Source: Geotalea uraniireducens Rf4 (lineage in GTDB: Bacteria > Desulfobacterota > Desulfuromonadia > Geobacterales > Geobacteraceae). From it: a stretch of DNA of 32,000 nt. The stretch covers positions 4,260,001-4,292,000 of the forward strand of contig NC_009483.1 of NCBI RefSeq assembly GCF_000016745.1, written 5' to 3'. The notes under the pieces are model-generated. The model worked only from the letters and a program-made list of their open reading frames with translations. It was not told the origin of the DNA and searched no databases. Both the position numbers and the translations under genes were made by a program. Positions within the stretch are counted from its first letter, which is position 1. Each line of letters starts with the position of its first letter. Shown in pieces: positions 3,885 to 26,758 of this stretch.

Positions 3885-4005
3885 TAAAAGGAATGGGTGA
3901 TGTCGTTCTTATCGGAAAGTATAGCCCAAATATTGACAATAACAGCCACCAGCAACCACGACTTTTGCGGAGGATGAGTCCCATGCGGCATGACAAGGAA
4001 AGCTC

Positions 4006-4194: not shown

Positions 4195-4287
4195 GCAGAC
4201 CTCCGGGATTAATTGTATGCAGGAGCATTTAACTTATCGGCGGAAGTATTGAGGAAGTTAAGTCTGTTTTTGCCCAATCCATCCGTC

Positions 4288-4848
4288 TTATCCATTGTCG
4301 CGCTCCCGGCAATGGACGCAGTTCCGATAGCCGGTGCAGGGTTTGAAGACAGAGATGAGCATCAGGTAGAGGAGGACGATGGTCTGGAGGACGCCAAAAA
4401 TCACGTCCACGTAATAGGTGCGAAAATAATCCGGGTCGGCAAAGGCGCCGAAGCCGAGGACATCGCTCAGCGCAGCCAGCCTCCTCATCCATGGGGCAAG
4501 ACAGAGGGAGCCAAAAACCATCGCCGCCACAGTAATGGTCCACTTGGTGACGACCCAGCGGCAGGAGGTGAGCCGCAGGTTGGCCACCAAACAGAGCGCC
4601 ACCCCGCTCAGAAAGCAGAGGGCCGCAGAGGGAATGATGAGAAAGTTGTCCAGATACTGGATGCCGACGTTGAAAGCGAACAGCGCATCGCCGCTGCCGG
4701 CCAGGCGGCTCAGGTAGAGGAGGACCATGACGCTAAAGCCGGCGCCGACCCAGAGGCATGAGGAAATGATATGAAGGTACTTGAGGAACAGTCGAATACG
4801 GTGAAATTCCGGAAGCGTTTGCATACCAGGGCATCTCCTGGAGCCCAA
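4288..4848 (-). CDS. Hypothetical integral membrane protein (about 4-5 TM segments)
   Basis: 186-aa track ORF, hydrophobic throughout. The ATG at 4824 (MQTLPEF...) is an alternative start. No family was recognised. Confidence 0.5.
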   Translation of the reverse strand: MGSRRCPGMQTLPEFHRIRLFLKYLHIISSCLWVGAGFSVMVLLYLSRLAGSGDALFAFNVGIQYLDNFLIIPSAALCFLSGVALCLVANLRLTSCRWVVTKWTITVAAMVFGSLCLAPWMRRLAALSDVLGFGAFADPDYFRTYYVDVIFGVLQTIVLLYLMLISVFKPCTGYRNCVHCRERDNG

Positions 4849-5060
4849 GTATAATTGTCGGCAATCCGCCGACTAAAATAAAGTATGTATACCGTTCGAT
4901 GCGTATACTTTTATCCTGATGCAAAATGTACTCACCAGATCGGTGACTTCTCAAAATCTTACAACGGGTTAAAAACATTCGTGTTTATTCGTGTCATTCG
5001 TGGCTAACTGCCGTTTTTGGATTTATTCGACAGCTACGATTCCCCCCCAACTCCCGATAC

Positions 5061-5099
5061 AAAAAAGCCCCCGGCTCAATGAGCACGGGGGCTTTTTCC
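5061..5099. terminator. Rho-independent, bidirectional-looking terminator downstream of the sfrA-like gene
   Basis: AAAAAAGCCCCCGgctcaatgagcaCGGGGGCTTTTT. A GC-rich 8-bp stem is flanked by an A-run and a T-run, 30 nt after the stop at 5131. Confidence 0.6.
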
Positions 5100-5130
5100 A
5101 TACATGCGGACTGACCTTCGACCGACAGTA

Positions 5131-7662: not shown

Positions 7663-7813
7663 GTTATCTTTACCTCTGATTTTTTTCAGCTCTTTATTTT
7701 TTTATATAACTTCGGCCGCTGGTCGCGCTCAAAAATGCCCGGGAGCAAGACGTCGAGGAACAAGCAGGGGAGCACAAAGGCAACGCCGCAGATGGGCGTT
7801 TTTCCGCGGGAAG

Positions 7814-14749: not shown

Positions 14750-15147
14750 TGGTTACACCTACTTGATTTAAATTCCAACAGGATTTCATAAGCTTTTTAG
14801 CAGAATATGTCAAGGCATTTATCAATCACATTAAATACTCATCAAACATCCTCTTTATTATTTCATAACATAAATAAAAGGTTTGCCATATACTGGCCAA
14901 TCAAGCGGAGATCTCCCAAGAGTAAAAAACCCAAGTTCGAATCTTCAGCGGATACAATTGCAATAAATTGATAAAATACCTGTTTGAAAATATAGAATAG
15001 TGTTTTATACTTGTCAAGCAAGAAAAATTACATGCCTATAATTAGACCATGTTTGAGACATTTAACAAACGATATTAAATAGTTAGACATTATCATCAAA
15101 CCAACGAATCATGCCGGCTGTTATACTTGGTGGAGGAGATTTTATTT

Positions 15148-15603
15148 ATGCTGAACCTGCGAAAAAAAATTCTTGTCGCAATTGACGGCTCCCCCCTTTC
15201 CGACAAAGCCGCCGAAGAAGCGGTACGCATGGCGGTCGGCAACCCGAGTCAATTTAAAAGCAAGATATATGCCATGCTGGTTTTACCTAACGCCCCTCGC
15301 AATACATTTACCGACTTTGTCCCCGCAGCCCCTATTACCGAATCCAAGGAATGGGCAGAATTACGTGAACGAATCCTTTATGTAATTGAAAAGGATGCCA
15401 AGGAAGCAGGAATACCCCTGGAAATCAAGGTCGTCTACGGAGATCCGGCCGATGAACTGCTGAAGTTTGCGGAAAGGGAAGAAATCGACGTCATCGTCAT
15501 CGGCAGCTCAGGAAAAGGCTTTCTCAAAAGGAAACTGCTTGGCAGCGTATCTCACAAAGTCGCAAAATATGCCAAATGCTCCGTCTACATAATCAGGGGA
15601 TAA
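15148..15603 (+). CDS. Universal stress protein (UspA family)
   Basis: Track ORF trimmed to the ATG at 15148, 9 nt after GGAGGAG. It contains ILVAIDGSPLSDKA and the C-terminal VIGSSGKG...LGSVSHKVAKYAKCSVYII ATP-binding motif. Confidence 0.85.
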   Translation: MLNLRKKILVAIDGSPLSDKAAEEAVRMAVGNPSQFKSKIYAMLVLPNAPRNTFTDFVPAAPITESKEWAELRERILYVIEKDAKEAGIPLEIKVVYGDPADELLKFAEREEIDVIVIGSSGKGFLKRKLLGSVSHKVAKYAKCSVYIIRG

Positions 15604-15636: not shown

Positions 15637-15665
15637 TTGACAAAAAAGGTCGTCCTCTCTATGAT
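15637..15665 (+). promoter_or_regulatory. Candidate sigma-70 promoter of the sensor kinase gene
   Basis: TTGACA (15637-15642), a 17-nt spacer, then TATGAT (15660-15665). It lies about 40 nt upstream of the ATG at 15705. Confidence 0.5.
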
Positions 15666-15704
15666 TACCTTAATTTAATCTCTCTCATTTAGCCTGACCG
15701 CTCC

Positions 15705-17288
15705 ATGGAGTGTTATGCTTTGCGTCTGCGCCTGATATCAAAACTAACCATTTCCACAAACATGGTATTGCTGATTTTCATGGTTATTTTTGCCTATGTA
15801 AACCTTGCAGCGTTAAAAAAGCTCCTTATCGAAGAAGCAGTTACAGACGCCGACAAACTGGGTGAAACCATCATCCGCGCCACCCAACACCAGATGGTTC
15901 ATGATGACCGTCAACGGATCCAGCAAGTGATAAAAGAAGTGGGGGCTGAAAAGGGAATCGACCACATCAGGATGATCAATAAAAACGGCCGCATCATTTA
16001 TTCCACCCAGGAGGAGGAAATAGGCACATTTCTCGACAAAAAAGCGGAAGCCTGCAACATGTGCCATTCCAGCAGTAACCCACGGACACACGCTTCCTCC
16101 ATGAACAGAAGCAGGATCTTTACCAGGCATGATGGAAAACAGCTTCTGGGCCTGGCCAAGGCCATTTATAACGAAGAGAGCTGTTTCTCCGCCAAGTGCC
16201 ACTTTCATCCCGAACGTTTCAGGGTTCTGGGCGTACTCGATGTTACCGTCCCCCTTGATCGCATGAATGCCCAGCTCAACTCCTACCGAGGCACAACCAT
16301 TGCTGTCACCATCCTCCTTATGGGGCTCATCTCACTCTGCATCACCATCTTCATTCAGCAACTGGTCAACCAACCGGTGCAACAACTTCTGAAGCACACC
16401 GAACAACTGGCGCGGGGAGAAATGGATACCAGTGTTTCCTTTACTTCGGGGGGTGAACTGGGAGAACTGGCTGACAGTTTCAACAATATGACGATGAAGC
16501 TCAAACGGGCAAGAGCCGAACTGGAGGACTGGGGAAAGAACCTGGAATCCAAGGTCGAAGAACGGACCCATGAGATTACGGATATCCAGGCACAGCTCAT
16601 TCGCTCGGAAAAACTTGCATCCCTCGGGGAACTTGTGGCCGGCATAGCCCACGAAATCAACAATCCGCTGACGGGTATCCTGGTTTTCTCCTCCCTTGTC
16701 AGCAAGGACCCTAAACTTGACCCATCCCTGAAAGATGACCTGGAGATCGTCGTTCAGCAGACAGAGCGCTGCAGTCAGATAGTCAAAGGACTCCTGGATT
16801 TTTCCAGGGAGTCGGTCCCCCAGAAAAAGTTTTCATCCCTTAACCGCATCATGGACATGTCACTTTCCCTCATCGAGCGTCAGGTGCTTTTCCAGAATAT
16901 CACCATAACGAAAGATTACAGCACTGACTTACCGGATATGCTGCTGGACCCCAACCAGGTCGAACAGGTTTTTGTCAATATGATCCTCAATGCCGGTCAG
17001 TCCATGCTTGATGGCGGCGATCTCCAGATCTGCACCGGCATGACAACGGACGGCTGTCACGAGTTTGTCAGTATATCCGATACCGGCTGCGGCATTTCAG
17101 AGGAAAACCTGGTGAAGATATTTGATCCTTTCTTCACCACCAAGTCAACCAAAGGGACCGGCCTGGGTCTGTCGGTTTCCTACGGGATCATCAATAATCA
17201 CAGTGGAACGATAGAGGTGGAGAGTAAGGTGGGAAGCGGCACGACTTTTACCATCATGCTGCCGACTAGACTAACAGAAATACTTTAA
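15705..17288 (+). CDS. Sensor histidine kinase: TM, periplasmic domain with CXXCH plus CX4CH motifs, TM, HAMP, DHp and HATPase
   Basis: 527 aa. The periplasmic segment contains CNMCH and CFSAKCHFH. HAMP is followed by the H-box AGIAHEINNPL, the N-box NMILNAGQSM, G1 ISDTGCGI and G2 GTGLGLSVS. Confidence 0.85.
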   Translation: MECYALRLRLISKLTISTNMVLLIFMVIFAYVNLAALKKLLIEEAVTDADKLGETIIRATQHQMVHDDRQRIQQVIKEVGAEKGIDHIRMINKNGRIIYSTQEEEIGTFLDKKAEACNMCHSSSNPRTHASSMNRSRIFTRHDGKQLLGLAKAIYNEESCFSAKCHFHPERFRVLGVLDVTVPLDRMNAQLNSYRGTTIAVTILLMGLISLCITIFIQQLVNQPVQQLLKHTEQLARGEMDTSVSFTSGGELGELADSFNNMTMKLKRARAELEDWGKNLESKVEERTHEITDIQAQLIRSEKLASLGELVAGIAHEINNPLTGILVFSSLVSKDPKLDPSLKDDLEIVVQQTERCSQIVKGLLDFSRESVPQKKFSSLNRIMDMSLSLIERQVLFQNITITKDYSTDLPDMLLDPNQVEQVFVNMILNAGQSMLDGGDLQICTGMTTDGCHEFVSISDTGCGISEENLVKIFDPFFTTKSTKGTGLGLSVSYGIINNHSGTIEVESKVGSGTTFTIMLPTRLTEIL

Positions 17289-17404
17289 AAATGAAGGGGA
17301 CTAGTTTTCTTCAGAGCGATGACTGCCGCCACGACTGAATAGGGCAATGCATACAAATATCAGCACAAAGTTCCAATGCTTCCACACATACCCGGATTGT
17401 GCTG

Positions 17405-18820
17405 CTAACTGCTGGCCTGGTTTCTGATCGAAATACCAAGCTTCTTTATCAGCGCCTGGAAGTTCGGCCGCAGCATGCCGGTTTCTTCAGCCGCACGGGT
17501 GATGTTCCAGTTGTTCCGTTTCAGCGCATTGAGGGCAAAGGCCTTTTCTACGGGCTCCACTGCGCGTTCCCGAATATGCCGTTTAGTTTCTTTCAATTCG
17601 TCGGCGCTTTGCGGAATAAATCCTGAAATAAGGCAGCTTTCGTCTCCGCCAGGCAAGGTAAGCTCAAGATTCTCCTTCTGGATAAGCCCCCCTTCAACCA
17701 GAACGACGGCCCGTTCAACAATGTTCTCGAGCTCGCGTACATTGCCGGTAAAGGGGTATTCCTCCAGCAATGCAAGGGCGTCAGGAGCCAATCCCCGGAT
17801 TTCCTTACCCATTTCTTCAGCAAATTTCTTCAGGAAGTGCGCTATCAGGAGCGGCAGATCCCCCTTCCTGTCCCGCAAAGGAGGAAGGTCTACCGGGATT
17901 ATATTGAGACGGAAAAACAGGTCTTCCCGGAAGCTTCCTTCGGCAACGAGGGTTCTGAGGTTCCTGTTGGTGGCCGCCACCAGACGGATATTGATCGGGA
18001 TGGGCTGTGTCCCGCCGATGGGGGTAACCTCGCGCTCCTGAAGAACCCGCAGCAATTTGGCCTGGGTAGTCAGGCTGATATTGGCGACCTCGTCCAGAAA
18101 AAGCGTTCCGCCATCGGCAACTTTAAAAAGCCCCATCTTGGTATGAACGGCTCCGGTAAAAGAACCTTTGACATGACCGAACAACTCTGATTCCAGCAGG
18201 TTTTCTGCCAGAGATGTGCAGTCCACTGCGACAAAGGGTTGGTCCCGCCGCTGGCTGTTCTTATGGATCGCACATGCAACGAGCTCTTTACCCGTGCCGC
18301 TTTCACCCGTTATGAGAACGCTACTATCGGTCGGCGCCACCTGCATGATCCGCCGATACACCTTTTGCATCTCCCGGCTTGCACCGATGAACATATCGAA
18401 GCCGTGATTATCCCGCAGCTCCTTGCGCAGATACATGTCATCGAACAGCACAGCTTTCTGCTCCAAGGCGTTTTCGACTTTTTCGATAATTTCTTCAGGG
18501 GTGAAAGGCTTGGCGATATAATCGACTGCACCGTTTTTCATGACTTCAACTGCGGTATCTACCGAGGAATAACCGGTGATGATAATAACCGGCATCTCAG
18601 GCTGAAGGACCTTAATGCTCTTCAAGACCTCCATGCCCCCCATTCCCGGCATTTTCAGGTCGGTTATAAGCAAGTCGAATGCCTCCGCCTGCAGCTTTTC
18701 AATGGCAAGATACCCGTTAGCAAAGGTTTCAACCGTAAACCCGCCACCATCGAGAATGCGGCGCATCCCCTCCCTGATAACCGCTTCATCATCGACGACC
18801 AGAATACGCTTTCTCACCAT
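17405..18820 (-). CDS. Sigma-54-dependent response regulator (NtrC family: REC, AAA+ and Fis-type HTH)
   Basis: Track ORF 17405..18898, trimmed to the ATG at 18820 (MVRKRILVVDDE...). The receiver has the acceptor Asp in LLITDLKMPG. Walker A is GESGTGKE, and the GAFTGA-type loop is GSFTGA. The C-terminal HTH is NWNITRAAEETGMLRPNFQALIKKL. Confidence 0.9.
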   Translation of the reverse strand: MVRKRILVVDDEAVIREGMRRILDGGGFTVETFANGYLAIEKLQAEAFDLLITDLKMPGMGGMEVLKSIKVLQPEMPVIIITGYSSVDTAVEVMKNGAVDYIAKPFTPEEIIEKVENALEQKAVLFDDMYLRKELRDNHGFDMFIGASREMQKVYRRIMQVAPTDSSVLITGESGTGKELVACAIHKNSQRRDQPFVAVDCTSLAENLLESELFGHVKGSFTGAVHTKMGLFKVADGGTLFLDEVANISLTTQAKLLRVLQEREVTPIGGTQPIPINIRLVAATNRNLRTLVAEGSFREDLFFRLNIIPVDLPPLRDRKGDLPLLIAHFLKKFAEEMGKEIRGLAPDALALLEEYPFTGNVRELENIVERAVVLVEGGLIQKENLELTLPGGDESCLISGFIPQSADELKETKRHIRERAVEPVEKAFALNALKRNNWNITRAAEETGMLRPNFQALIKKLGISIRNQASS

Positions 18821-19324
18821 TTCGCTTACCCCTTCACTGTCTGAATGTTCCATATCGCTCAATATGGCAAAGCATGTCCGGTTTATACACTGCTCCAATC
18901 CCCGCCAGATAAGCCATCAACCAGCGCAGCAATTTTCACGCCGATTTCATTTTTAGCCATTTCAAAGAATTTGTCCCGTTCAACAGCCACAACACCCGGC
19001 CCGTTTTTACTCGGCATTTTCCCGTCAGGAGTGGCAATGAAGCTGCTTAACGTCGCATAGATACGCGGCGCACCCAGGACAATCTTAAAATATATTAAGT
19101 AAACAATATTGGTAAGTCAAGCGCTAAACGCTTTCAACAAATGAGTGAAGCAAAAAACTATTTCATCATCGATCCCAACAGACAAAGGGTTTCCGTACCG
19201 TTGCATAAATAGCCACACATGGTGTATTTTTAATTATACATGCACCAAGCGAAAAGGCAAAGCATGTGATTACAATAGGTTAGAACAATAACACCCTTCA
19301 ACACCCATGCCCATCCACCTATTT

Positions 19325-19345
19325 ACGTATAAAATTTATATACGT
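19325..19345. promoter_or_regulatory. Inverted repeat ACGTATA-N7-TATACGT, a candidate enhancer (UAS) for the adjacent sigma-54 activator
   Basis: Read directly from the sequence. It lies about 100-120 nt upstream of the -24/-12 element. An A/T-rich stretch with an IHF-like TTTCAACACATTA (about 19403-19416) lies in between. Confidence 0.3.
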
Positions 19346-19441
19346 TACTCCGTTTTGCCCCGAAAGTGACTGCCTCAACAACAAGCAAAAACATCTTTTA
19401 TTTCAACACATTAACACCGTTAATTAATAAAATATTAATCG

Positions 19442-19458
19442 CGGCACAGTCGGTGCAA
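19442..19458 (+). promoter_or_regulatory. Sigma-54 (-24/-12) promoter
   Basis: cGGCACagtcgGTGCAa. GG is at 19443-19444 and GC at 19455-19456, which is the canonical spacing of TGGCAC-N5-TTGCA. It lies about 55 nt upstream of the ATG at 19513 and next to a divergent sigma-54 activator gene. Confidence 0.65.
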
Positions 19459-19512
19459 TACCATGTTTGTAAAAAGCAGCAAATCCAAGAAATGCCTTAA
19501 AAGGAGGATGCC

Positions 19513-19761
19513 ATGAAAAGCACAGTCAAAAACGCGTTACTTGTATTTATCGGCAGCGTTTCCACAGCCTTTGCAGCCGACGGAGTCGAAAAAGGAGAAA
19601 ACAGTTTGCTGCTGTTTCTCTTCCTGGGTTTTGGCGCCCTGATCATCGTCTTCCAGACGATTCCCGGCATACTGCTGTTTTTCTCAATGCTGAAGGGGCT
19701 GTTCATGTCAGCGCCAAAGGAAACCGCTCTTGCCGCTGAAAAACCCGACAAAACATCGTAA
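19513..19761 (+). CDS. Small exported/membrane protein P1 (82 aa): signal peptide plus one TM helix; uncharacterised
   Basis: A strong RBS (AAAGGAGGA) is present. The signal peptide ends ...STAFA/ADG. It is followed by the TM LLLFLFLGFGALIIVFQTIPGILLFF. It is a paralogue of the ORF at 20360..20605. Confidence 0.65.
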   Translation: MKSTVKNALLVFIGSVSTAFAADGVEKGENSLLLFLFLGFGALIIVFQTIPGILLFFSMLKGLFMSAPKETALAAEKPDKTS

Positions 19762-19763
19762 TT

Positions 19764-19889
19764 CCTATTTCAAATCAAGGATGAAATCAAGGCGGTGAGG
19801 AGTGAGGCGACGAAGGCGTACAGATAGTACGTTGAGGAGCCGAAGACAAGCCAACGAAGATAGCGCCTTGATTTGGAATTGGAATAAGG
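19764..19889. repeat. Element B: 126-bp imperfect palindromic intergenic element
   Basis: AAATCAAGGCG (arm) pairs with CGCCTTGATTT. The outer ends are CCTATTTC... and ...GGAATAAGG. The apex is CGTACAGATAGTACG (19817-19831). The element begins 3 nt after the P1 stop codon. Confidence 0.65.
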
Positions 19890-19928
19890 CACTATCTGCG
19901 AAATCAACAAAAAGAGAGGCTGAAGATC

Positions 19929-20309
19929 ATGCAAGGACTTCTCATAGCAGATGAGGACCTGGATAGCCGGAAGTTTATGGCCGACCTCTTTATCGAAGCG
20001 GGATATAACGTCATGGTAACAAACTCAGCGGCCAACGTGCTGTACGGCATTCTGAAAAAAACGGCCCAGGTGGTGCTGCTCAGCAGCGAATTTGACGAAC
20101 TGACGGCCACAGACCTGATCCCCCTGTTGAAAAAGTGCAACCGGAATTTGACAATTATCCTGGTTTCCAACGAAATGTCTCTGCCGCTCATTCGCAAACT
20201 GCGCAAGGAAGGAATTTTTTACCACGCGCTGAAACCTGTAAAACCGGAAGACCGGGAAGAGATCCGCCAAGCCGTGAAATGCGCTTTCGAAACCATGCGG
20301 GGCAATTGA
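19929..20309 (+). CDS. Stand-alone receiver-like (CheY-fold) protein lacking the phospho-acceptor Asp (pseudo-receiver)
   Basis: 126 aa. By-eye alignment to CheY shows the acidic pair retained (LLIADED). The acceptor position in VVLLSSEF is Ser instead of Asp. The T/S (ILVSNE) and K (ALKPV) positions are retained. Confidence 0.7.
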   Translation: MQGLLIADEDLDSRKFMADLFIEAGYNVMVTNSAANVLYGILKKTAQVVLLSSEFDELTATDLIPLLKKCNRNLTIILVSNEMSLPLIRKLRKEGIFYHALKPVKPEDREEIRQAVKCAFETMRGN

Positions 20310-20359
20310 AACTACACCATAAAGGACAGATAGCAAAAACATCAAATAAGGAGACGGCC

Positions 20360-20605
20360 ATGAAAACATTAACAACGCTCTTCATCACGATCACCCTTTG
20401 GTTGGTCGCAATTCCCCAGGCTTTTGCAGCCTCAACGACACGGGTATACAGCAGCGGCATTCTGGTGCTCGCTTTTCTGGGCTTCTGCGCCTTGATCGTT
20501 GTTGTTCAACTGATCCCGGCCATCATCACGTTATGGGGAATCGTCAAGGAACTCGTGGCCGGTAAGGACAAGGAAAAAGAAGCAAAAGCCGAAATATCAA
20601 ACTGA
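20360..20605 (+). CDS. Small exported/membrane protein P2 (81 aa), paralogue of P1
   Basis: Internal ATG of track ORF 20135..20605, preceded by AAGGAGA. The signal peptide ends ...PQAFA/AST. The TM is ILVLAFLGFCALIVVVQLIPAIITLW. In the core FLGFxALIxVxQxIPxI block, 12 of 19 positions are identical to P1. Confidence 0.65.
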   Translation: MKTLTTLFITITLWLVAIPQAFAASTTRVYSSGILVLAFLGFCALIVVVQLIPAIITLWGIVKELVAGKDKEKEAKAEISN

Positions 20606-20668
20606 AGCGGCTTATCGCGCAGTACGCTAAATATTTTATCTATACATATCGGAAGGGAGGATGAACTC

Positions 20669-20836
20669 ATGTTCGAACAAATGTTCTCATCGGTTGGAGA
20701 AATCAAGGAAGTCTTCACACTGGTTGATTATTACCAGTACATAAAAGGGGTTGAATACCTTATCTGCGTGGCATTCTTTGTCGGATTTCCCATTTTCTAC
20801 CGGTACATTCACAAACGGGAAAACGCAGACGACTAA
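20669..20836 (+). CDS. Tiny membrane protein P3 (55 aa), uncharacterised
   Basis: Hand translation gives MFEQMFSSVGEIKEVFTLVDYYQYIKGVEYLICVAFFVGFPIFYRYIHKRENADD. The RBS GGAAGGGAGG lies 8 nt upstream. There is one C-terminal TM. It is below the track cutoff. Confidence 0.45.
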   Translation: MFEQMFSSVGEIKEVFTLVDYYQYIKGVEYLICVAFFVGFPIFYRYIHKRENADD

Positions 20837-20936
20837 TGTTGATTGCATCGCGAAAAGAGTGTCGCCAAGAATATACGATAACAGTACGGCAGAGAATTAA
20901 CTGTTGTGATCAATCTACAAAAAGGAGAACGCCATT

Positions 20937-21467
20937 ATGTATGCTATGAAGAACTGGCTTATCGGGGGAATTTTAATGCTAGCGCTGTCCGCGGTCCCTC
21001 CCGTCTGTCAGGGGATGAACATGCCGGATTCCATCACGCTTGATTCCCTGGTTCAGCTCTACGATAAGGTGAAATTCGATCATGCAAAACATATCAATCT
21101 GATAAAGGACTGCGCTGTGTGCCACCACCACACGACCGGCACGCTGGTTGAAGACCCCAATTGCGTCAGGTGTCACAAGAACAGCAGTGAAACCAAGATA
21201 GTGGCCTGCAAAGGATGTCATTCCGCGCAGACTTTCTCGGCAGAGACTCTGAGAGAGAAGCGGCAGGGCACAAAACTCTACCACCAGGACAAGCCGGGGC
21301 TAAAAGGAGCTTACCATCTGAATTGTATGGGATGCCATACCAAGATGGGTGGACCGACCGGCTGCCTGGATTGTCACAAACGGAACAAGGCAGGAGACGC
21401 TCTCTACAATTCCGGCAAGTCTGCGCCCAAAAAGGCACAGGGAAATGCAGCGGGCCACGGTCATTAA
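20937..21467 (+). CDS. Periplasmic pentahaem c-type cytochrome (cytochrome c3 / class III-like)
   Basis: 176 aa with a signal peptide. There are five CXXCH motifs (CAVCH, CVRCH, CKGCH, CMGCH, CLDCH) plus spare His residues for bis-His ligation. Confidence 0.85.
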   Translation: MYAMKNWLIGGILMLALSAVPPVCQGMNMPDSITLDSLVQLYDKVKFDHAKHINLIKDCAVCHHHTTGTLVEDPNCVRCHKNSSETKIVACKGCHSAQTFSAETLREKRQGTKLYHQDKPGLKGAYHLNCMGCHTKMGGPTGCLDCHKRNKAGDALYNSGKSAPKKAQGNAAGHGH

Positions 21468-21528
21468 CCAAGAAAGCCGGTGAAAGATTTTACCAGGCGC
21501 TAAAATTTGAACCGAAGGAGACACGAAC

Positions 21529-22452
21529 ATGAAGCGGAGAGATTTCCTGAAAGGTTGCATGATATGTGGGGCAGCATCCTCCCTTGGCATATCGAAAAAA
21601 GCCTGGGGGAGCGGTTCCTTTGAAGGATATCCCGAAGGAATGGGGGTCCTGGTAGATCTGACTCGCTGCATTGGCTGCCGTAGCTGCGAGGCGGCCTGCA
21701 ACAAGGAACAGCAACTTCCCGAACCAAAGGTGCCTTTCGATGATCAATCGGTTTTTGAGGAGAAACGACGTCCGAGCGAAGAAGCATACACGGTCGTAAA
21801 CCGTTATGAGCAAAAAGGCGGCCCGGTGTACCGCAAGATCCAGTGCAACCATTGTAACGAACCGGCCTGCCTCACATCATGCTTTGTAAATGCCTACACC
21901 AAAACAAAAGAAGGCGCCGTTATCTATAATTCAAAAGTGTGCGTAGGATGCCGCAACTGCATGATCGCCTGTCCTTTCAACGTCCCTGGTTACAGCTATT
22001 CGAGCGCAACCAACCCGGTGGTTAAAAAATGCATCCTCTGCTACGACACCCGCCTTAAATATGGAAAACCGCCTGCCTGCGTCGAGATTTGTCCCCAAGA
22101 GGTACTCACGTTCGGCTACAGGAAAGACCTGATCAAGATCGGTCATGAGCGGATCAGAGAAACGCCGGACAAATATGTAGACCACATTTACGGTGAAAAA
22201 GAAGTGGGAGGAACAGGATGGCTCTATCTCTCCAGCGTCCCATTCGACAAAGTCGGCTTTGATAATACATTGGGAAATGAGCCGATCATCTCCAACGTCA
22301 AGGAGTTCCTCGGCACTGTTCCCATGGTGCTCACCATCTGGCCTGCCCTGTTTACCGGATTCCACCTGCTCTCTACCCGCAAAAAGGGCCATGGAGACGA
22401 CCATGGGCATGACGCACATTCAAAATCAGAGCAGGAGGACGCAAAAAAATGA
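21529..22452 (+). CDS. Tat-exported 4x[4Fe-4S] ferredoxin-type subunit with C-terminal TM anchor (HybA/NrfC/HmcB-like)
   Basis: The twin-arginine leader is MKRRDFLKG. Four Cys clusters are present: CIGCRSCEAAC, CNHCNEPACLTSC, CVGCRNCMIACP and CILC...CVEICP. There is a hydrophobic helix near the C-terminus. Confidence 0.85.
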   Translation: MKRRDFLKGCMICGAASSLGISKKAWGSGSFEGYPEGMGVLVDLTRCIGCRSCEAACNKEQQLPEPKVPFDDQSVFEEKRRPSEEAYTVVNRYEQKGGPVYRKIQCNHCNEPACLTSCFVNAYTKTKEGAVIYNSKVCVGCRNCMIACPFNVPGYSYSSATNPVVKKCILCYDTRLKYGKPPACVEICPQEVLTFGYRKDLIKIGHERIRETPDKYVDHIYGEKEVGGTGWLYLSSVPFDKVGFDNTLGNEPIISNVKEFLGTVPMVLTIWPALFTGFHLLSTRKKGHGDDHGHDAHSKSEQEDAKK

Positions 22453-23846
22453 AAACATATAAAGCAAACGGAGTGGAAATAGTCGATTCCCTCTACAAGG
22501 ATAGCGGGAAGAAAAAATGGAACTTGATGGAGAAGCTGCTCTTGGGCCTCACCCCCCGGCAGTATATTGCCCAGGCCCTGCGCAACCCTTTCAACTGGAT
22601 ATTGGCAGTTATCTTTGCCATCGGAATACCGATAATCCTCGGCCGCTTCTTCTTCGGGTTAGGATGGGTAACCCACAGTTCAAATGATTATCCGTGGGGA
22701 ATGTTTCTGGGATTCGGACTCTTCGCCATGGTGCCCCTATCCTCTTCAGGATTCCAGCTTGGAACCACATGTGAGGTCTTCGGTCGCCATGACTTTGAAC
22801 CCATTGAGCGGCTAGGGCTCTTGAACGGCCTCTTAGGCTACTTATTCGCCGTCATCTATCTCATGGTTGACCTAGGGCAACCATGGCGGCTTCCCTATCC
22901 CATGGTGGTATCCTTCGGCCCCGCGGCGGTTCTCTTCCTGGTGGCCTGGCATGTGGCCACTTACCTGTCAGTCCAGGTAGCGGAGGTTTCGGTAGCGTTC
23001 TTCGAATGGATAGGTTTCCCGATGGGCAAACGAGGGGTGAGAAAAATCACCCTCGGCCTGACCGTGGCCGGCATCATTCTTTCAACCCTTCACCAGGGCG
23101 CCTTGGGAGCTCTCTTCACCTATGCCCCCGGCAAGGTGCACCCGCTCTGGTATTCCGCCTCTTTCCAGTGGCTCCACTTTTTCGTTTCCTCGCTGCCGGG
23201 GGGGCTCTGCATGGTCATCGCGGTGAGCACCATTGCCCGTAAGACGATGGCCTGGCGTTGCGGCCAGGGTTTCAACGACAATCTGGACAAACTTACCATC
23301 GCCCTGGCCAAGGGTGCCAGCATGGGACTTGCCACTTACCTTACCATCAAGCTGATCGGCATGGCCCACGACAACAAATGGGAATACCTCGCCACCGGCT
23401 GGGGGCAATGGTACATGTTCGAAATATTCTTCGGGGTCATCCTGCCTTTGGGGCTCTTCGCCTACGCCATCAGAAACAAAAAGGTCGGGCTGGTCCGCTT
23501 CAGCGCCTTTCTTACCGTATTCGGCGTAGTGCTCAACAGGGTGAATACCGCCATGATAACATTCAACTGGAAACTGGCGGAACGCGAAATTCCCCACTGG
23601 CGTGAGGTCATCATCTCCGTCACCATTTTCGCGATTTATATCACGGTTTATCGTTTTATCCTCTACCGCCTGCCGATTCTCTATTCGTGGAAGACTGCGG
23701 ATGAGACGGTAGAAGCAACGGAAGGTGCGAGAGTACCGAAAAAAGTCATCCGTGAAGAAGAGCCGGTGCCTGTTGGAACGTACAGGACGAGGGAAGAGAG
23801 CATCATTCCCACAGCCGGCTTCTCAAGCCTGGAAAAAGGGAACTGA
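22449..23846 (+). CDS. NrfD/PsrC-family integral membrane quinone-interacting subunit (HybB/HmcC-like)
   Basis: 465 aa and polytopic. There is an ATGA start/stop overlap with the Fe-S gene, and AGGAGGA lies upstream. The gene order Fe-S then NrfD is typical of NrfCD-type modules. Confidence 0.8.
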   Translation: MKTYKANGVEIVDSLYKDSGKKKWNLMEKLLLGLTPRQYIAQALRNPFNWILAVIFAIGIPIILGRFFFGLGWVTHSSNDYPWGMFLGFGLFAMVPLSSSGFQLGTTCEVFGRHDFEPIERLGLLNGLLGYLFAVIYLMVDLGQPWRLPYPMVVSFGPAAVLFLVAWHVATYLSVQVAEVSVAFFEWIGFPMGKRGVRKITLGLTVAGIILSTLHQGALGALFTYAPGKVHPLWYSASFQWLHFFVSSLPGGLCMVIAVSTIARKTMAWRCGQGFNDNLDKLTIALAKGASMGLATYLTIKLIGMAHDNKWEYLATGWGQWYMFEIFFGVILPLGLFAYAIRNKKVGLVRFSAFLTVFGVVLNRVNTAMITFNWKLAEREIPHWREVIISVTIFAIYITVYRFILYRLPILYSWKTADETVEATEGARVPKKVIREEEPVPVGTYRTREESIIPTAGFSSLEKGN

Positions 23847-23917
23847 GCGCGCGGGCAGTGAAAAATGCCGCGTAGCCCGTCTGACCGGCAAAAATAGATC
23901 AATTACAGGAGATAATC

Positions 23918-24682
23918 ATGAGATTCCGTTGGACTGCTTATATTCTGGCGGCGCTCTTGGGAAGCGCGTCCCTGACATCCGCCTTGGAACTCAAGAACAA
24001 AACCTTCAGTACCGCAAACGCCGGCAAGGTTGTTTTCAGCCACACGTCACACCTGAAGAAGAAAAATGCCAAGAGCGCCAATGTAGGCTGCAAAGCCTGC
24101 CATAACGGCAATATGCGTGAGAACGTCCGCTATACCATGGCGGACATGGACAAGGGAAAATCATGCGGCATTTGCCATAACGGCAAAAAAGCCTTCGCAC
24201 TGGCAAAGTGCACGGTCTGCCACAAAGTGCGCGAGATCACGTTCAAGGTGAAGGAAACCGGGCCGGTCCTCTTCAGCCACGCCAAACACCTGAAAACCAT
24301 GCAATGCGGCGCATGCCACAACAAGGTTTTCAAAGCCGGCCCAAACAAGCGTGTCGACATGGCGCAAATGGAACGGGGGAAATCGTGCGGCGCATGCCAT
24401 AACGGCAAGAAGACCTTTGCCCTGGGAGAATGCACAAAATGCCACCCGGTAAAGGAGAAGAGCTATAAGGTTGCCGATGCCGGAAACGTCACTTTCAGCC
24501 ATAAGCTTCATATCGACATGTACAAGTGCCGGGAATGCCACAGCAGGCTCTACATCCCGGGTTCCGGCAACAAAACCGTTTCCATGGCCGAGATGGAGGC
24601 CGGCAAATCCTGCGGCGCCTGCCATGACAGTAAATCGGCTTTTACCGTGAAGGAAAGCTGTGACAAGTGTCACAGGACGTAG
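23918..24682 (+). CDS. Periplasmic nonahaem c-type cytochrome built from three tandem c7-type trihaem modules
   Basis: 254 aa with a signal peptide ending ...LTSA/LE. There are nine CXXCH motifs. Three repeats of V-x-FSH-x-x-H...CxxCH...MA-x-M-x-x-GKSCG-x-CH-x-x-K-x-F...C-x-x-CH are visible by eye. Confidence 0.85.
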   Translation: MRFRWTAYILAALLGSASLTSALELKNKTFSTANAGKVVFSHTSHLKKKNAKSANVGCKACHNGNMRENVRYTMADMDKGKSCGICHNGKKAFALAKCTVCHKVREITFKVKETGPVLFSHAKHLKTMQCGACHNKVFKAGPNKRVDMAQMERGKSCGACHNGKKTFALGECTKCHPVKEKSYKVADAGNVTFSHKLHIDMYKCRECHSRLYIPGSGNKTVSMAEMEAGKSCGACHDSKSAFTVKESCDKCHRT

Positions 24683-24685
24683 CGG

Positions 24686-24813
24686 GTTGTTGAACAACGA
24701 GGGCATATGAGGACGCGTTGCGAAAGGGCGATAAACCCGAACGTACAGGCAGTACGGAATGGTTTTGAGCCCTTGAGCAACAGGCAGTGCAGACCATGCC
24801 GATTTTCAGCAAC
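24686..24813. repeat. Element C: 128-bp imperfect palindromic intergenic element
   Basis: The left arm GTTGTTGAACAACG...GTTGCGAAAGGGCGATAAACC aligns with the reverse complement of the right arm GTTGCTGAAAATCG...GTTGCTCAAGGGCTCAAAACC. The apex CGTACAGGCAGTACG (24742-24756) is exactly central. The element begins 3 nt after the cytochrome stop. Confidence 0.65.
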
Positions 24814-24836
24814 ATGACAGGAGGAGGTAAACCGCC

Positions 24837-25703
24837 ATGTTAAGAAGCCTGACAGCCAGGGCCATAGTGCCGGTCGCAGTGGCGGTGACCGGGTTCGTCA
24901 TCGTCTGCTGCATTCTCCTTTACTCGGTCATGAAAACAGACATGGTCAACGACGCGGTCAGCTATGAAGCAAACCTGGCCGACACCATCATAAAGTCGAC
25001 CCGTTACGCCATGCTCAAGTCGGACCGGGAAACGGTGAGCAACATCATCGACAACATCGGCAGCCAGGACGGAATCGAACATGTGCGCATCTTCAACAAA
25101 AAAGGGCTCATCATGTTCTCGCAGCAGCATGAGGAGATCAACCGCTATGTGGACAAAAAAACTGCGGGCTGCATCGGCTGTCACGCCGGGACAGTACCGC
25201 ACGCCACCATGAGGGACATGGAGCGGGCACGCCGTTTTGTCAACACACTGGGTACGGAGGTGATTGCAATCACTGCTCCCATATACAACGAGCCCGCATG
25301 CTATACGGCCTCCTGCCACTTCCACACTTCCGGCCAGAAGATCCTCGGGACCCTTGATATCGGCCTCTCTGCGACGCCTCTTTCGAAAACGCTTTCCATC
25401 ATGCGCAGCAGGATGATGGTTTTCAGCATTATGGTGCTCATCCTCTCGGTGGGAGGAGTCGCAGCGCTTTTGAGGAGACAGGTCTTTATGCCGCTCCGGG
25501 AAATTAAGGCGTTTACAGCAAAAGTGAACCGTGGTAATCTTTCTCCCGAACTTTCAGGAATTTCCGGTGAACTGACCGAACTTGCCGGCGACATCCGGGC
25601 AATGGCCTCCAGGCTCAGGATCGCCGTCGATGAGCTCGAAAAGCTGAGAGGGGGCACGGAAGAGATGAAAGAGAAGGCAGGCGTGAACGCGAACAGCGTA
25701 TAG
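24837..25703 (+). CDS. Kinase-less sensor protein: TM, periplasmic CXXCH/CX4CH domain paralogous to the kinase sensor, TM, then HAMP
   Basis: 288 aa. It contains CIGCH and CYTASCHFH. It is collinear with the 15705..17288 sensor region (GIEHVRIFNKKGLIMFS vs GIDHIRMINKNGRIIYS; IYNEPAC...CHFH vs IYNEESC...CHFH). It ends about 20 aa after HAMP, with no H-box or ATPase domain. Confidence 0.8.
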   Translation: MLRSLTARAIVPVAVAVTGFVIVCCILLYSVMKTDMVNDAVSYEANLADTIIKSTRYAMLKSDRETVSNIIDNIGSQDGIEHVRIFNKKGLIMFSQQHEEINRYVDKKTAGCIGCHAGTVPHATMRDMERARRFVNTLGTEVIAITAPIYNEPACYTASCHFHTSGQKILGTLDIGLSATPLSKTLSIMRSRMMVFSIMVLILSVGGVAALLRRQVFMPLREIKAFTAKVNRGNLSPELSGISGELTELAGDIRAMASRLRIAVDELEKLRGGTEEMKEKAGVNANSV

Positions 25704-25867
25704 GAGCCAGTCGGACTTAGGAATGAATCTACTGCGAGAACGGAAAATCGGTCCATATTTCCGGAAATTTTCGACAAATAGGTCCACTATTCGCTCTCAA
25801 ATTTCCGATAATCTGTCCTCGATTTGCCATTCTCTCGTTACGATTCCCTAAGTCCGACTGGCTCCTA
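25701..25867. repeat. Element D: 167-bp element with 21-bp perfect terminal inverted repeats (MITE/REPIN-like)
   Basis: TAGGAGCCAGTCGGACTTAGG (25701-25721) is the exact reverse complement of CCTAAGTCCGACTGGCTCCTA (25847-25867). The inner arms are partly alignable, and there is an internal TTTCCGGAAA palindrome. Its first three bases are the TAG stop of the upstream gene. Confidence 0.8.
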
Positions 25868-25919
25868 GGTGAGCTGTTGCGGCCATCCAGCCATCGGCCA
25901 TCCGGAGATAACGCTCGCC

Positions 25920-26465
25920 ATGAAGAATCAAACCACCCACTCCTCTCAGCCGGAAGATGAGGCAAGCCTGCCGGTACAAAAGGGCACGCAGGAGAGCATG
26001 GAAAAAATCCGGCGGCTGAAGACAAAGGCAAGCCGCGGGCTTTTTGCAATGGCCCTCTTCATTGCCGTCAGCATCGGTGCAGTGCAGAATTTCGCTTTCC
26101 TCCCCACATTCACGCCTCAGATTCGAGCCATCCTCGGCACACCACCCTCGGCAAACATGATAAGCGCTGCGCTCATGCTTTACAGCTTCTCTGCCATCAT
26201 CCTCATCCTCTCGCGGATGATGAGCGGCTCCGGCAGCTACAGCGGATTTTCCCATGTGGGCTATCTCGCCGCGTTTTTCGCCTTTTATCATTTTAGCGGC
26301 GCACTGTATGAAAACTTCTGGGCCGTCTTTGCCGCCGGCACAACAATTCTCGGACTGGAAAGCTACCACATCTGGACGTTCTGTGCGGAAGAGATCAAAA
26401 AAGAGCAGGAAAGCCTGGCTGAGCATGGCGGGAGCAAAGGTAGCGGCGAGAGCGCCGGGGAATGA
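25920..26465 (+). CDS. Hypothetical membrane protein (about 4 TM), last gene before the thi operon
   Basis: Track ORF 25869..26465. Its GTG start would lie 1 nt past the end of element D, so I prefer the ATG at 25920 (MKNQTTHSS...). A hydrophilic N-terminus is followed by four hydrophobic segments. Confidence 0.55.
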   Translation: MKNQTTHSSQPEDEASLPVQKGTQESMEKIRRLKTKASRGLFAMALFIAVSIGAVQNFAFLPTFTPQIRAILGTPPSANMISAALMLYSFSAIILILSRMMSGSGSYSGFSHVGYLAAFFAFYHFSGALYENFWAVFAAGTTILGLESYHIWTFCAEEIKKEQESLAEHGGSKGSGESAGE

Positions 26466-26617
26466 CCTTGTGCGCAAAACCCCCGATAAAACGACACTAT
26501 ATGGACCAAGAAAAGAGTTGACAGAAGACGGTCAATATTGCTAGTTTACCTGATATTCGTGGGTTCATAACCACTCAAACCGCATGCCACACCCATATTG
26601 CTGAACAGACAATCGCA

Positions 26618-26712
26618 TACATCGCTGGGGGAGTTCGCAAGAACTGAGATCCGTCTTAACCGGAAACCCTTTGAACCTGATCCGGCTGATCCCGGCGGAG
26701 GGAAGCGCACTA
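26618..26712 (+). promoter_or_regulatory. TPP (thiamine pyrophosphate, THI-box) riboswitch
   Basis: CGCTGGGGGAG...CTGAGA...AACCCTTTGAACCTGATCCGGCTGATCCCGGCGGAGGGAAGCG matches the conserved TPP aptamer core (GGGG-GC...CTGAGA...ACCC-TT-GAACCTGATC-GG-T-AT-CC-GCG-AGGGAA). The P1 helix pairs CGCT with AGCG. Confidence 0.9.
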
Positions 26713-26732
26713 TTTAGGTCCACCAGACCATG

Positions 26733-26758
26733 AGCCGCTTCAGCGGCTTTTTTGTTTT
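26733..26758 (+). terminator. Riboswitch expression-platform terminator (attenuator)
   Basis: AGCCGC-TTCA-GCGGCT followed by TTTTTTGTTTT. It lies between the aptamer and the thiS start. Confidence 0.75.

Follow-up and report, generated by a model that had tools for sequence, protein, structure and literature searches.

The window, a stretch of 32,000 nucleotides from Geotalea (Geobacter) uraniireducens Rf4, contains a gene cluster corresponding approximately to Gura_3646–3657. It runs from a sensor kinase and a BccR orthologue through a promoter with upstream dyads to P1, a stand-alone receiver (REC), P2, P3, a cytochrome (C5), an iron–sulfur protein (FeS) and an NrfD-like protein, followed by CbcC-, CbcD- and CbcE-like genes, and ends at a TPP riboswitch upstream of thiS. 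Gura_3647–3657 are not named in the literature searched. The features are as follows.

15705–17288, plus strand: sensor histidine kinase (Pfam HAMP, HisKA, HATPase_c)
17405–18820, minus strand: BccR orthologue of NtrC type, 471 aa, Gura_3647 (Pfam and NCBIfam)
19223–19240, no strand: distal dyad TGTAT-N8-ATACA (inverted repeat I1), 219 nt upstream of the −24 element
19325–19345, no strand: proximal dyad ACGTATAAAATTTATATACGT, ACGTATA-N7-TATACGT (inverted-repeat search), 117 nt upstream of the −24 element
19401–19413, plus strand: IHF-like site TTTCAACACATTA, a candidate by consensus match, with one mismatch to WATCAANNNNTTR
19442–19457, plus strand: sigma-54 −24/−12 promoter CGGCACAGTCGGTGCA, CGGCAC-N5-GTGCA (sequence and conservation)
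19513–19761, plus strand: P1, at the position of GSU0597, with a signal peptide and one long hydrophobic segment
19929–20309, plus strand: REC, stand-alone receiver at the position of GSU0596 (Pfam Response_reg, E = 3.7e-9)
20360–20605, plus strand: P2, P1 paralogue by alignment, at the position of GSU3489
20669–20836, plus strand: P3, HmcD-like single-TM protein and first gene of the module (NCBIfam HmcD)
20937–21467, plus strand: C5, periplasmic pentahaem class III (c3-type) cytochrome, Gura_3652 (five CxxCH)
21529–22452, plus strand: FeS, Tat-exported 4x[4Fe-4S] protein of HmcB/HybA type, Gura_3653 (RRDFLK, four Cys clusters)
22449–23846, plus strand: NrfD-like subunit of HmcC/HybB (NrfD) type, haem-free, ten predicted helices, Gura_3654 (NCBIfam)
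23918–24682, plus strand: C9, periplasmic nonahaem cytochrome, CbcC/OmcQ-like (nine CxxCH; three Pfam Cytochrome_C7, TIGR04257)
24837–25703, plus strand: SEN, kinase-less paralogue of the kinase's sensor, CbcD-like (TM, haem-motif periplasmic domain, TM, HAMP)
25920–26465, plus strand: TM4, four-TM protein, CbcE-like (position and comparison with related loci)

Every gene listed in an earlier note on this DNA was found as described, with two amendments to its layout. The kinase and activator, which it had called divergent, are convergent, tail to tail, and the activator diverges from the operon rather than from the kinase. The four-TM gene is present, but the start given at 25869 is less likely than one at 25920, which yields 181 aa as in related contigs.

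The kinase consists of a TM segment, a periplasmic domain, a second TM segment, HAMP, HisKA and HATPase_c, and its periplasmic domain carries a CxxCH (CNMCH) and a Cx4CH (CFSAKCH-F-H) haem-c motif; among its orthologues Cx4CH-x-H is kept in 45/45 and CxxCH in 31/45. Orthologues 57–64% identical to it adjoin bccR-like genes in cbcBA-type loci, and it is a probable periplasmic redox sensor feeding BccR. The activator, with receiver, Sigma54_activat (AAA+) and HTH_8 domains, is 75–79% identical to those adjoining cbcBA in Geobacter sensu stricto and Geomobilimonas luticola, and in the BccR tree all bootstrap replicates (100%) group it with these activators and separate it from the BccR2 paralogues.

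The −24/−12 promoter that had been recognized before the first cluster gene lies 55 nt from the P1 ATG and is kept in position and sequence in almost all related loci examined, with a YGGYAY-N6-TGCW equivalent approximately 40–75 nt 5′ of P1, far above chance; the pattern by itself is not rare in the window (4 matches versus 1.5 expected). The palindrome placed about 100 nt upstream, with an IHF-like A/T tract in between, corresponds to the proximal dyad and to the IHF-like site, which sits inside a 77% A+T stretch. Dyads of the proximal class occur 101–129 nt upstream in many loci, including the cbcBA-type loci L045 and L051, and many loci, whether of Hmc or of cbcBA type, have a TGTATA-N7-TATACA dyad 205–222 nt 5′ of the −24 element. 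Judged by sequence, both dyads are candidate BccR binding sites.

The putative operon opens with P1, REC and P2. P1, which bears the motif FLGFxALIxxxQxxP, occurs in both operon families, and P2 aligns with it at 35% identity (E = 7e-12), bearing out the proposed paralogy. REC is more highly conserved than any other protein encoded here (72–98% identical across 80 genome loci) and is indeed an Asp-less receiver: its Ser52 aligns with the phospho-acceptor Asp of BccR, and this position is S or G in 106/106 homologous copies.

The next four genes, P3-C5-FeS-NrfD, are a four-gene Hmc/Nhc-like quinone module by sequence homology, and the suggested HMM comparison matched its members to the NCBIfam HmcA, HmcB, HmcC and HmcD models. 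P3 scores 21.3 bits (E = 2e-4; cutoff 34) against NCBIfam HmcD, the only model matched by 13/16 of its orthologues, and has a weak precomputed Pfam match to PF28260 DVU_0533. It accompanies C5-FeS-NrfD and gave no tblastn match in cbcBA-only loci; truncated P1-REC-P2-P3 copies also occur. C5, with five CxxCH in 68/69 orthologues and a signal peptide kept in those inspected, resembles HmcA and NhcA in their C-terminal domain: it matches HmcA residues ~397–542 (PDB 1h29 and 1gws, E = 6e-11 to 1e-10), the NCBIfam HmcA model (E = 4.7e-11) and the nine-haem cytochrome 19hc (E = 1e-5), and has no detectable homology to CbcA. FeS, whose RR motif is kept in 65/67 orthologues and whose C-terminal transmembrane helix is a membrane anchor, matches HmcB at 400.4 bits (cutoff 420), HybA at 200 bits and, over residues 34–297, PDB FdnH 1kqf_B (E = 6e-31). 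Its gene overlaps by 4 nt that of the NrfD-like subunit, which matches HmcC at 361.7 bits (cutoff 550) and HybB at 159.9 bits, has no Pfam match, Pfam NrfD included, and no PDB sequence match even by profile; the best PDB matches of its low-confidence AF2 model (pLDDT 61) are ActC and ActF (E = 8e-6 to 2e-3, TM ~0.5). This subunit presumably holds the menaquinone/menaquinol site. The module thus shares with Desulfovibrio Nhc and Hmc a c3-type multihaem cytochrome, a TM-anchored, Tat-exported four-cluster Fe–S protein, an NrfD-type membrane protein and a small subunit of HmcD type and, like Nhc, it lacks HmcE and HmcF, no similar gene being found in the cluster by gene list and domain search. 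It differs in that its cytochrome is a single five-haem domain, equivalent to the HmcA/NhcA C-terminal domain, its genes run in the order D-A-B-C, none of the four scores reaches its NCBIfam equivalog cutoff, it forms part of a metal reducer's sigma-54/BccR operon, and its presumed direction is quinol oxidation.

Behind the module, C9 comprises three c7 domains (E = 2e-49), is 52–58% identical to the 12-haem CbcC of cbcBA-type loci and is weakly matched by the QrcA model; its orthologues have 12 haems in 28 loci and 9 in 13. SEN is 30% identical to the sensor and HAMP of the kinase over 250 aa (E = 2e-47) and shares 56–62% identity with the protein in the CbcD position; its orthologues keep CxxCH in 62/65 and Cx4CH in 53/65 cases. 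TM4 has no family match in the searches, and a distant copy of it closes most cbcBA-type operons examined in genomes with both operons. The count of six genes without an assigned role is therefore too high by P3, an HmcD-like module member, and the nonahaem cytochrome, kinase-less sensor and four-TM protein correspond to CbcC, CbcD and CbcE, which are named yet uncharacterised.

In G. sulfurreducens, two hypothetical genes flanking a receiver precede cbcA and cbcB; the set follows a sigma-54 promoter and diverges from bccR (Joshi, Chan & Bond 2021), and bccR is needed to induce cbcBA and to reduce Fe(III) at potentials below −0.21 V (Joshi, Chan & Bond 2021). The likeness of the window to this Cbc5 locus, proposed in the earlier note, is real, as judged from that description and from related loci in Geobacter sensu stricto. 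Shared are the orthologous activator, adjoining haem-motif kinase, −24/−12 promoter and dyads, P1/Asp-less receiver/P2 in front, CbcC/D/E-like genes behind and thiSGE next to them, so that a frame of kinase, BccR, P1, REC, P2, ..., CbcC, CbcD, CbcE, thiS-thiG-thiE and a radical-SAM gene is common to both types. Inside it, cbcA (7 haems) and cbcB (dihaem b, PF01292) replace the HmcD-, pentahaem c3-, HmcB- and HmcC-like genes in G. hydrogenophilus and other Geobacter sensu stricto, G. luticola and Geomonas sp. RF6. In Geomonas sp. RF6 cbcBA lies in a CoaE-IclR-kinase-BccR-...-thiSGE-radical SAM frame, and in G. luticola and Geobacter sensu stricto the matching site beside thiSGE holds cbcBA, in keeping with the thiS-thiG-thiE neighbourhood given in that note. 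Further differences are the haem number of CbcC (12 versus 9 in the window) and a terminator-like hairpin 3′ of cbcB in 9/11 cbcBA loci at the thiS site (8 strong, ~20 nt past the stop), whereas the window has none between the NrfD-like gene and C9. Because cbcA-cbcB occupies exactly the module site of the same frame beside thiSGE, the reading of a module swap is right; its polarity is probably the reverse, as cbcBA-type BccR and REC sequences nest among Hmc-type ones.

We compared 80 species-level loci (~80 species), the best REC loci, each from a different genome. Hmc-type modules are present in 69, cbcBA in 20 and both in 13, so b-type and NrfCD-type modules do both occur at this locus but are not simple alternatives. 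Where both are present they form separate paralogous sigma-54 operons within 10 kb, and in the dual-operon loci examined the cbcBA operon has its own kinase, activator, promoter, P1′, REC′ and P2′. These data suggest that the Hmc-type arrangement is the commoner and probably the older one. Since the G. sulfurreducens-type BccR is nested in Hmc-associated ones, the model-organism arrangement looks like a derived chimera; the swapped form would probably be that of G. sulfurreducens, with the unrecombined one kept in the window.

We favour, at a probability of about 0.6, the reading that the window operon is the H-type member of a paralogous pair of sigma-54-controlled respiratory operons in Desulfuromonadales; Rf4 may have cbcBA elsewhere, which we count against this best explanation. 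From regulation and homology, we infer that the module works at low potential as a menaquinol:cytochrome c oxidoreductase; which way the electrons flow and how the reaction is coupled energetically are conjecture. The haem-c sensor kinase would report a reduced, low-potential periplasm and phosphorylate the BccR orthologue, which would bind the two TGTATA-N7-TATACA dyads ~117 and 219 nt upstream and, with the DNA bent at the A/T-rich IHF-like tract, activate sigma-54 RNA polymerase at 19442–19457. The transcript would encode P1, the Asp-less receiver and P2, probably with feedback or accessory roles, and the four-subunit Hmc/Nhc-like complex. The NrfD-type subunit would exchange electrons with menaquinol, and the periplasmic 4x[4Fe-4S] subunit would pass them to the pentahaem cytochrome, from which they would reach the CbcC-like nonahaem cytochrome and the periplasmic pool of PpcA type; the complex would thus do the same job as CbcBA in G. 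sulfurreducens. If so, the BccR frame that serves low-potential CbcBA in the model species drives an Hmc/Nhc-like Fe–S/NrfD complex here, through which electrons would leave the inner membrane close to the thermodynamic limit; this could cost proton-motive force if quinol protons were released on the cytoplasmic side.

The 13 loci with both modules under separate regulators imply that the two need not be equivalent in function, and the Hmc-like operon might instead be a parallel second system, for another potential window or partner, that does not replace CbcBA, with Rf4 keeping cbcBA and its own regulator elsewhere. Besides those neighbouring operons, the published counts, with cbcBA in 93/96 Geobacteraceae (Joshi et al.) or CbcA in most, speak for this tentative alternative. 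Yet neither CbcA nor CbcB has a homologue in the 32-kb window. The 10-kb surroundings of the locus are likewise free of them in Geotalea sp. SG265, G. toluenoxydans and the Geotalea-like MAG L010, the Rf4 and FRC-32 chromosomes are absent among the best 120 CbcB homologues (down to ~66% identity), and each of the 80 best REC loci belongs to a different genome.

It is unlikely, though conceivable, that the same complex runs in reverse, from periplasmic cytochromes to menaquinone, fed by H2 or formate oxidation, a syntrophic partner, a cathode or Fe(II). Desulfovibrio Nhc and Qrc are cytochrome c3:menaquinone oxidoreductases thought to reduce quinone, the closest homologues of the module are Hmc/Nhc components of sulfate reducers, its architecture faces the periplasm without a cytoplasmic subunit, and near −0.2 V the electron transfer lies close enough to equilibrium to be reversible. 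Quinol oxidation, our preferred direction, is favoured by the orthologous regulator and promoter frame, which runs a quinol-oxidising pathway induced late in Fe(III) reduction in G. sulfurreducens, and by the retention of periplasmic cytochromes of CbcC type, which are typical of electron transfer to the outside. Although NCBI and JGI label the membrane subunit 'polysulfide reductase' or 'HybB-like', it is highly improbable that the module anchors an unrecognised periplasmic reductase of polysulfide/thiosulfate type unrelated to extracellular electron transfer: neither the cluster nor any of ~70 orthologous operons encodes a catalytic molybdopterin or hydrogenase subunit, and the multihaem cytochromes are the only periplasmic partners.

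Among other known systems, alternative complex III and Qrc likewise combine an NrfD-like subunit (the model fold resembling ActC and ActF), a periplasmic Fe–S relay and multihaem c, and ActA is pentahaem like C5; the window differs in lacking a molybdopterin-like domain or subunit (the ActB N-terminal part, QrcB), in its single NrfD-like subunit and in a cytochrome related to HmcA rather than to ActA/QrcA. The putative quinol oxidase Cbc4 (CbcSTU) of G. sulfurreducens also combines its cytochrome c with a 4x[4Fe-4S] protein and an integral membrane partner, CbcT and CbcU being likened by description; its CbcS is a membrane-anchored NapC/NrfH-type tetrahaem cytochrome, whereas the window has a soluble class III cytochrome and an HmcD-like subunit.

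The cluster of the window carries an Nhc/Hmc-type quinone module inside a BccR-type regulatory frame, an arrangement that is new, widespread and uncharacterised. We built the gene map from open reading frames together with Pfam and NCBIfam scans, which recovered every element of the gene list in the earlier note. Protein records ABQ27800–ABQ27809 match exactly, the pentahaem cytochrome C5 is Gura_3652, and the window genes correspond to about Gura_3646–3657, where tags other than Gura_3652 follow from gene order.

Features of the cluster and its edges, by position in the window
15127–15603, + strand, Usp
15705–17288, + strand, sensor kinase
17405–18820, − strand, NtrC-type sigma-54 activator (BccR)
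19513–19761, + strand, P1, small protein paralogous to P2
19929–20309, + strand, REC, receiver without the acceptor Asp
20360–20605, + strand, P2, small protein paralogous to P1
20669–20836, + strand, P3, HmcD-like small protein
20937–21467, + strand, C5, 5-haem cytochrome
21529–22452, + strand, FeS, Tat 4x[4Fe-4S] Fe-S protein
22449–23846, + strand, NrfD, NrfD-like membrane protein
23918–24682, + strand, C9, 9-haem CbcC-like cytochrome
24837–25703, + strand, SEN, kinase-less CbcD-like sensor
25920–26465, + strand, TM4, 4-TM CbcE-like protein
26617–26720, TPP riboswitch (RF00059, 67.7 bits), upstream of thiS-thiG-thiE
26732–26749, terminator-like hairpin, after the TPP riboswitch and before thiS-thiG-thiE

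The kinase and activator genes, first described as divergent, are convergent; it is the activator that is divergent from the operon. The riboswitch and hairpin (26617–26749) form the 3′ end of the cluster and divide the respiratory from the thiamine genes. Recent horizontal acquisition, judged by composition, was rejected because G+C content is unremarkable over the whole cluster. The current re-annotation of C5 (WP_232278942, 148 aa) begins downstream of the signal peptide; the 176-aa form with the signal peptide is kept in orthologues and is required for a periplasmic c-type cytochrome.

The central module of the cluster is P3-C5-FeS-NrfD. Against NCBIfam models, FeS scored 400.4 bits with HmcB (equivalog cutoff 420), NrfD 361.7 bits with HmcC (cutoff 550) and P3 21.3 bits with HmcD (E = 2e-4; cutoff 34), and despite falling short of the equivalog cutoffs the three can be regarded, from their sequences, as clear homologues of HmcB, HmcC and HmcD. 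The HybA and HybB scores of FeS and NrfD were lower than their HmcB and HmcC scores, and HmcD was the only match of P3 and of 13 of 16 P3 orthologues; P3 also has a weak precomputed Pfam match to DVU_0533, the HmcD gene. C5 contains five CxxCH motifs, as do 68 of its 69 orthologues, and aligns to the C-terminal domain of the 16-haem HmcA (PDB 1h29 and 1gws; E = 6e-11 to 1e-10) as well as to that of the nine-haem cytochrome c (PDB 19hc). FeS (307 aa, ferredoxin-type domain only) resembles FdnH end to end, C-terminal anchor included. NrfD, which has NCBIfam HmcC and HybB matches and no Pfam match, yielded no match to the PDB by sequence or profile. The best fold matches of its AF2 model (pLDDT 61, pTM 0.56) were ActC and ActF of alternative complex III (E = 8e-6 to 2e-3), a likeness that is supportive only, because the model is of moderate quality.

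Several known complexes were weighed as the identity of this module. Among the cluster genes there is no HmcE- or HmcF-like gene (cytochrome b; cytoplasmic CCG protein), and this, with the Hmc-type scores and the likeness to an HmcA domain, makes the module Nhc-like: a cytochrome, an Fe-S protein, an NrfD-like protein and a small subunit, all periplasm-facing. The four-subunit make-up without E and F subunits is common to Nhc and the window module, whereas the window cytochrome has five haems and that of Nhc nine, and the window gene order is D-A-B-C. Compared with HmcABCDEF, in which HmcA has 16 haems, C5 is a cut-down form that resembles the C-terminal domain only. Membership in alternative complex III or Qrc was rejected because both complexes have a molybdopterin-like subunit, and the cluster holds no such gene or domain of the ActB or QrcB type. 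Cbc4 was set aside since its cytochrome, CbcS, is NrfH-type and that of the window is not. C5 as a diverged CbcA was likewise rejected, the match (E = 0.014) consisting of haem motifs alone.

In G. sulfurreducens, bccR (GSU0598) is transcribed divergently from the sigma-54 operon GSU0597-GSU0596-GSU3489-cbcA-cbcB, in which GSU0597 and GSU3489 are hypothetical genes and GSU0596 encodes a receiver; a terminator after cbcB is followed by cbcC, cbcD and cbcE (Joshi et al.). The resemblance to this Cbc5 locus pointed out in the earlier note matches that layout, and the same frame is seen in cbcBA-type relatives. Searches of the related loci by tblastn with the window proteins, and ORF reading of G. 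hydrogenophilus, placed cbcA (seven haems) and cbcB (PF01292) between P2 and CbcC in the same frame. Geomonas sp. RF6, a 4.19-Mb genome labelled G. uraniireducens and Geomobilimonas luticola also have cbcA-cbcB there, at the chromosomal site that corresponds to the window cluster. The proteins at the CbcC, CbcD and CbcE positions of cbcBA-type loci are 52–62% identical to C9, SEN and TM4 of the window, and the window activator is 75–79% identical to activators adjoining cbcBA. Neither CbcA (seven-haem, C-terminal TM helix) nor CbcB (dihaem b, PF01292) had a tblastn match with E < 0.2 anywhere in the window. The contrast drawn at the outset between b-type and NrfC/NrfD-type subunits holds in anatomy, with cbcB (PF01292) in cbcBA loci and the FeS–NrfD pair in the window.

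The regulatory region of the operon is also shared. A −24/−12 element, CGGCACAGTCGGTGCA, lies at 19442–19457, upstream of the hypothetical-receiver-hypothetical trio. Four matches to the −24/−12 pattern in the window against 1.5 expected are unremarkable by themselves; an equivalent element stands ~40–75 nt upstream of P1 in nearly all related loci examined, and this conservation bears out the proposed sigma-54 promoter. The palindrome and IHF-like site reported with it are present too. The former, an inverted repeat at 19325–19345, belongs to a class of TGTATA-N7-TATACA dyads that many loci, with either module, have at two constant spacings from the −24 element (~101–129 and 205–222 nt), the distal copy in the window being at 19223–19240; the latter has one mismatch and lies within a 77% A+T tract. 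Dyads and tract are compatible with a standard enhancer-binding-protein promoter.

Downstream, of the 11 loci that have cbcBA at the thiS site, the position beside thiS-thiG-thiE, 8 carry a strong intrinsic terminator ~20 nt past cbcB (L045, a cbcBA-type locus, was among those folded). Folding revealed no terminator in the 71-nt NrfD–C9 spacer of the window (z = +0.55), and a candidate terminator of any kind follows the NrfD gene in only 15 of 57 loci with the Hmc-type module (H-type). The C9–SEN spacer (24676–24825) folds strongly (−51 kcal/mol; z = −4.25 versus shuffles) and is not a canonical terminator, and no second −24/−12 match occurs on the + strand inside the cluster. Read-through from the module into C9, the CbcC-like gene, appears plausible.

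A receiver scan with one genome per species yielded 319 relatives, and the best 80 of the 319 were analysed (L007–L086, the closest relatives of the receiver and not a random sample), with 10 kb viewed either side of it. The Hmc-type module alone was present in 56 loci, cbcBA alone in 7 and both modules in 13; in the other 4 the module type was not assignable owing to contig ends. The module swap proposed earlier thus stands in its anatomy, with cbcBA in place of the Hmc-type module in the same frame, but not in its polarity or as a simple alternation: either module may occupy the thiS site, yet 13 of 80 loci carry both. In these two-module loci cbcBA forms a second operon, P1′-REC′-P2′-cbcA-cbcB, with a CbcE-like gene last in most cases, and REC′ is only 50–62% identical to the window REC. 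Full reading of three of these loci showed that the second operon has its own −24/−12 element, its own kinase and a separate activator, BccR2, which is 35–40% identical to BccR. In L034, L043 and L053 (− strand, ~200–7800) the kinase of the cbcBA operon is 650–770 aa long and lacks haem motifs, and the −24/−12 element is TGGTAYG-N4-TTGCT.

The cbcBA-at-thiS loci of Geobacter sensu stricto, in turn, have BccR (78%) and REC (76–79%) of the Hmc-associated lineage. In distance-based (NJ) trees their REC falls amid those of H-type loci, apart from the REC′ clade, and their BccR, in the tree rooted on BccR2, is nested inside H-associated BccRs. Outside the clade of Geobacter sensu stricto and window BccR were placed the BccR2 outgroup (100% of 100 bootstraps), a large all-H Desulfuromonadales group (89%), the two-operon H group (77%) and a Trichlorobacter-like H group (67%). 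The nesting of REC and BccR among H-type sequences suggests, as a parsimonious reading, that the BccR frame first served an Hmc-like module and that cbcBA moved in later in some lineages. At slightly less than even odds (about 0.45), we propose that the Cbc5 cluster of G. sulfurreducens, bccR-cbcBA, arose in evolution as a chimera in which an Hmc/Nhc-like module, the original one of the BccR frame, was displaced by cbcBA from the BccR2 operon. If this reading holds, BccR, the haem-sensor kinase, CbcC, CbcD and CbcE would be the ancestral partners of the Hmc/Nhc-like module, in an arrangement that persists in the window and in most Desulfuromonadales sampled; cbcBA would derive from a distinct, paralogous operon equipped with a kinase and an activator (BccR2) of its own, and the displacement would have taken place in the Geobacter sensu stricto lineage plus a few others.

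Three minor observations concern these loci. In Geomobilimonas luticola, two tandem P2-like genes lie exactly at the P2/cbcA junction (L091, 8348–8863) and may be the scar of recombination between the two operon families. Besides the full operon, Trichlorobacter-like genomes have, a few kb upstream of it, a second and truncated P1-REC-P2-P3 set that lacks the cytochrome, Fe-S and NrfD genes (L021 6909–7900; L039 5476–6500; also L016, L017, L018, L020, L024, L027, L032, L036 and L048). A 1,053-bp contig (L046) from a MAG labelled Draconibacterium orientale carries a Geobacter-like P1-REC-P3 fragment and is probably binning contamination.

Sequence comparison confirmed that P1 and P2 are paralogues and that SEN is a kinase-less sensor, matching the TM-sensor-TM-HAMP part of the kinase (E = 2e-47). 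CxxCH and Cx4CH-x-H motifs occur in kinase and SEN alike, and Cx4CH is found in 45 of 45 orthologous kinases. PDB sequence searches with both sensor domains gave no match, and the AF2 model of SEN, built on an alignment of two sequences, was poor (pLDDT 55, pTM 0.35). The receiver is Asp-less, as had been stated: Ser52 aligns with the phospho-acceptor Asp of BccR, and the receiver fold is retained (Pfam E = 3.7e-9). All 106 copies have S or G at the canonical position, and Asp56, four residues past it, is invariant in 105 of them; with 72–98% identity across the 80 genome loci, REC exceeds every other protein of the locus in conservation. Since P1, P2, the Asp-less receiver and the CbcE-like protein are found in both operon families, they are not module-specific subunits; one possibility, by analogy with small membrane proteins and pseudo-receivers elsewhere, is that they provide feedback on the two-component system. 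The haem-sensor proteins accompany either module within the BccR frame, and the other accessory proteins span both operon families. Each is a candidate part of a so far unstudied circuit for redox sensing and feedback.

In G. sulfurreducens, induction below about −0.21 V depends on BccR (Joshi et al.), and the periplasmic c-haem motifs of the kinase would suit sensing of the periplasmic redox state. Through four [4Fe-4S] clusters and five haems, the complex should connect periplasmic cytochromes with the menaquinone pool, and the favoured direction, by analogy with CbcBA, would be quinol oxidation at very low driving force; on that analogy, the cluster probably has a low-potential quinol-oxidising function. 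If an NrfD-type subunit released the protons of quinol into the cytoplasm, proton-motive force would be lost in much the way expected of a dihaem-b redox loop run in reverse, and this similar loss would, as a hypothesis, make the Hmc-like and cbcBA modules energetically equivalent though unrelated.

Our literature search found no paper that names Gura_3647–3655 and none that combines Geobacter with Hmc or Nhc subunits (HmcB, HmcC, NhcA); Aklujkar 2013 and several supplements (including Soares 2024) lay outside that search, so an earlier passing mention is possible. The locus is absent from the discussion of Butler et al. 2010, and reviews and surveys take CbcBA as a conserved marker. Should the Cbc5 cluster be a chimera, subsurface Geobacteraceae such as Geotalea would usually employ an Hmc-like complex, rather than CbcBA, as their low-potential inner-membrane route under BccR control. 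If what this regulatory system usually controls is an NrfD-type complex of unrelated structure, the model organism would not be representative, and surveys that use cbcBA as marker genes would overlook or misinterpret the pathway. Geotalea species, isolated from contaminated subsurface sediments, would be a case in point. Two unrelated quinone modules in one frame, a dihaem-b transmembrane wire versus a haem-free NrfD subunit, would amount to a natural test of how energy is coupled when the driving force is very low.

Downstream of a radical-SAM gene, the window encodes a 554-aa protein with SLFN_AlbA_2 and HATPase_c_4 domains (29855–31519). Two related loci, L001 and L002, have an FAA-hydrolase gene in its place, and this flank is therefore variable.
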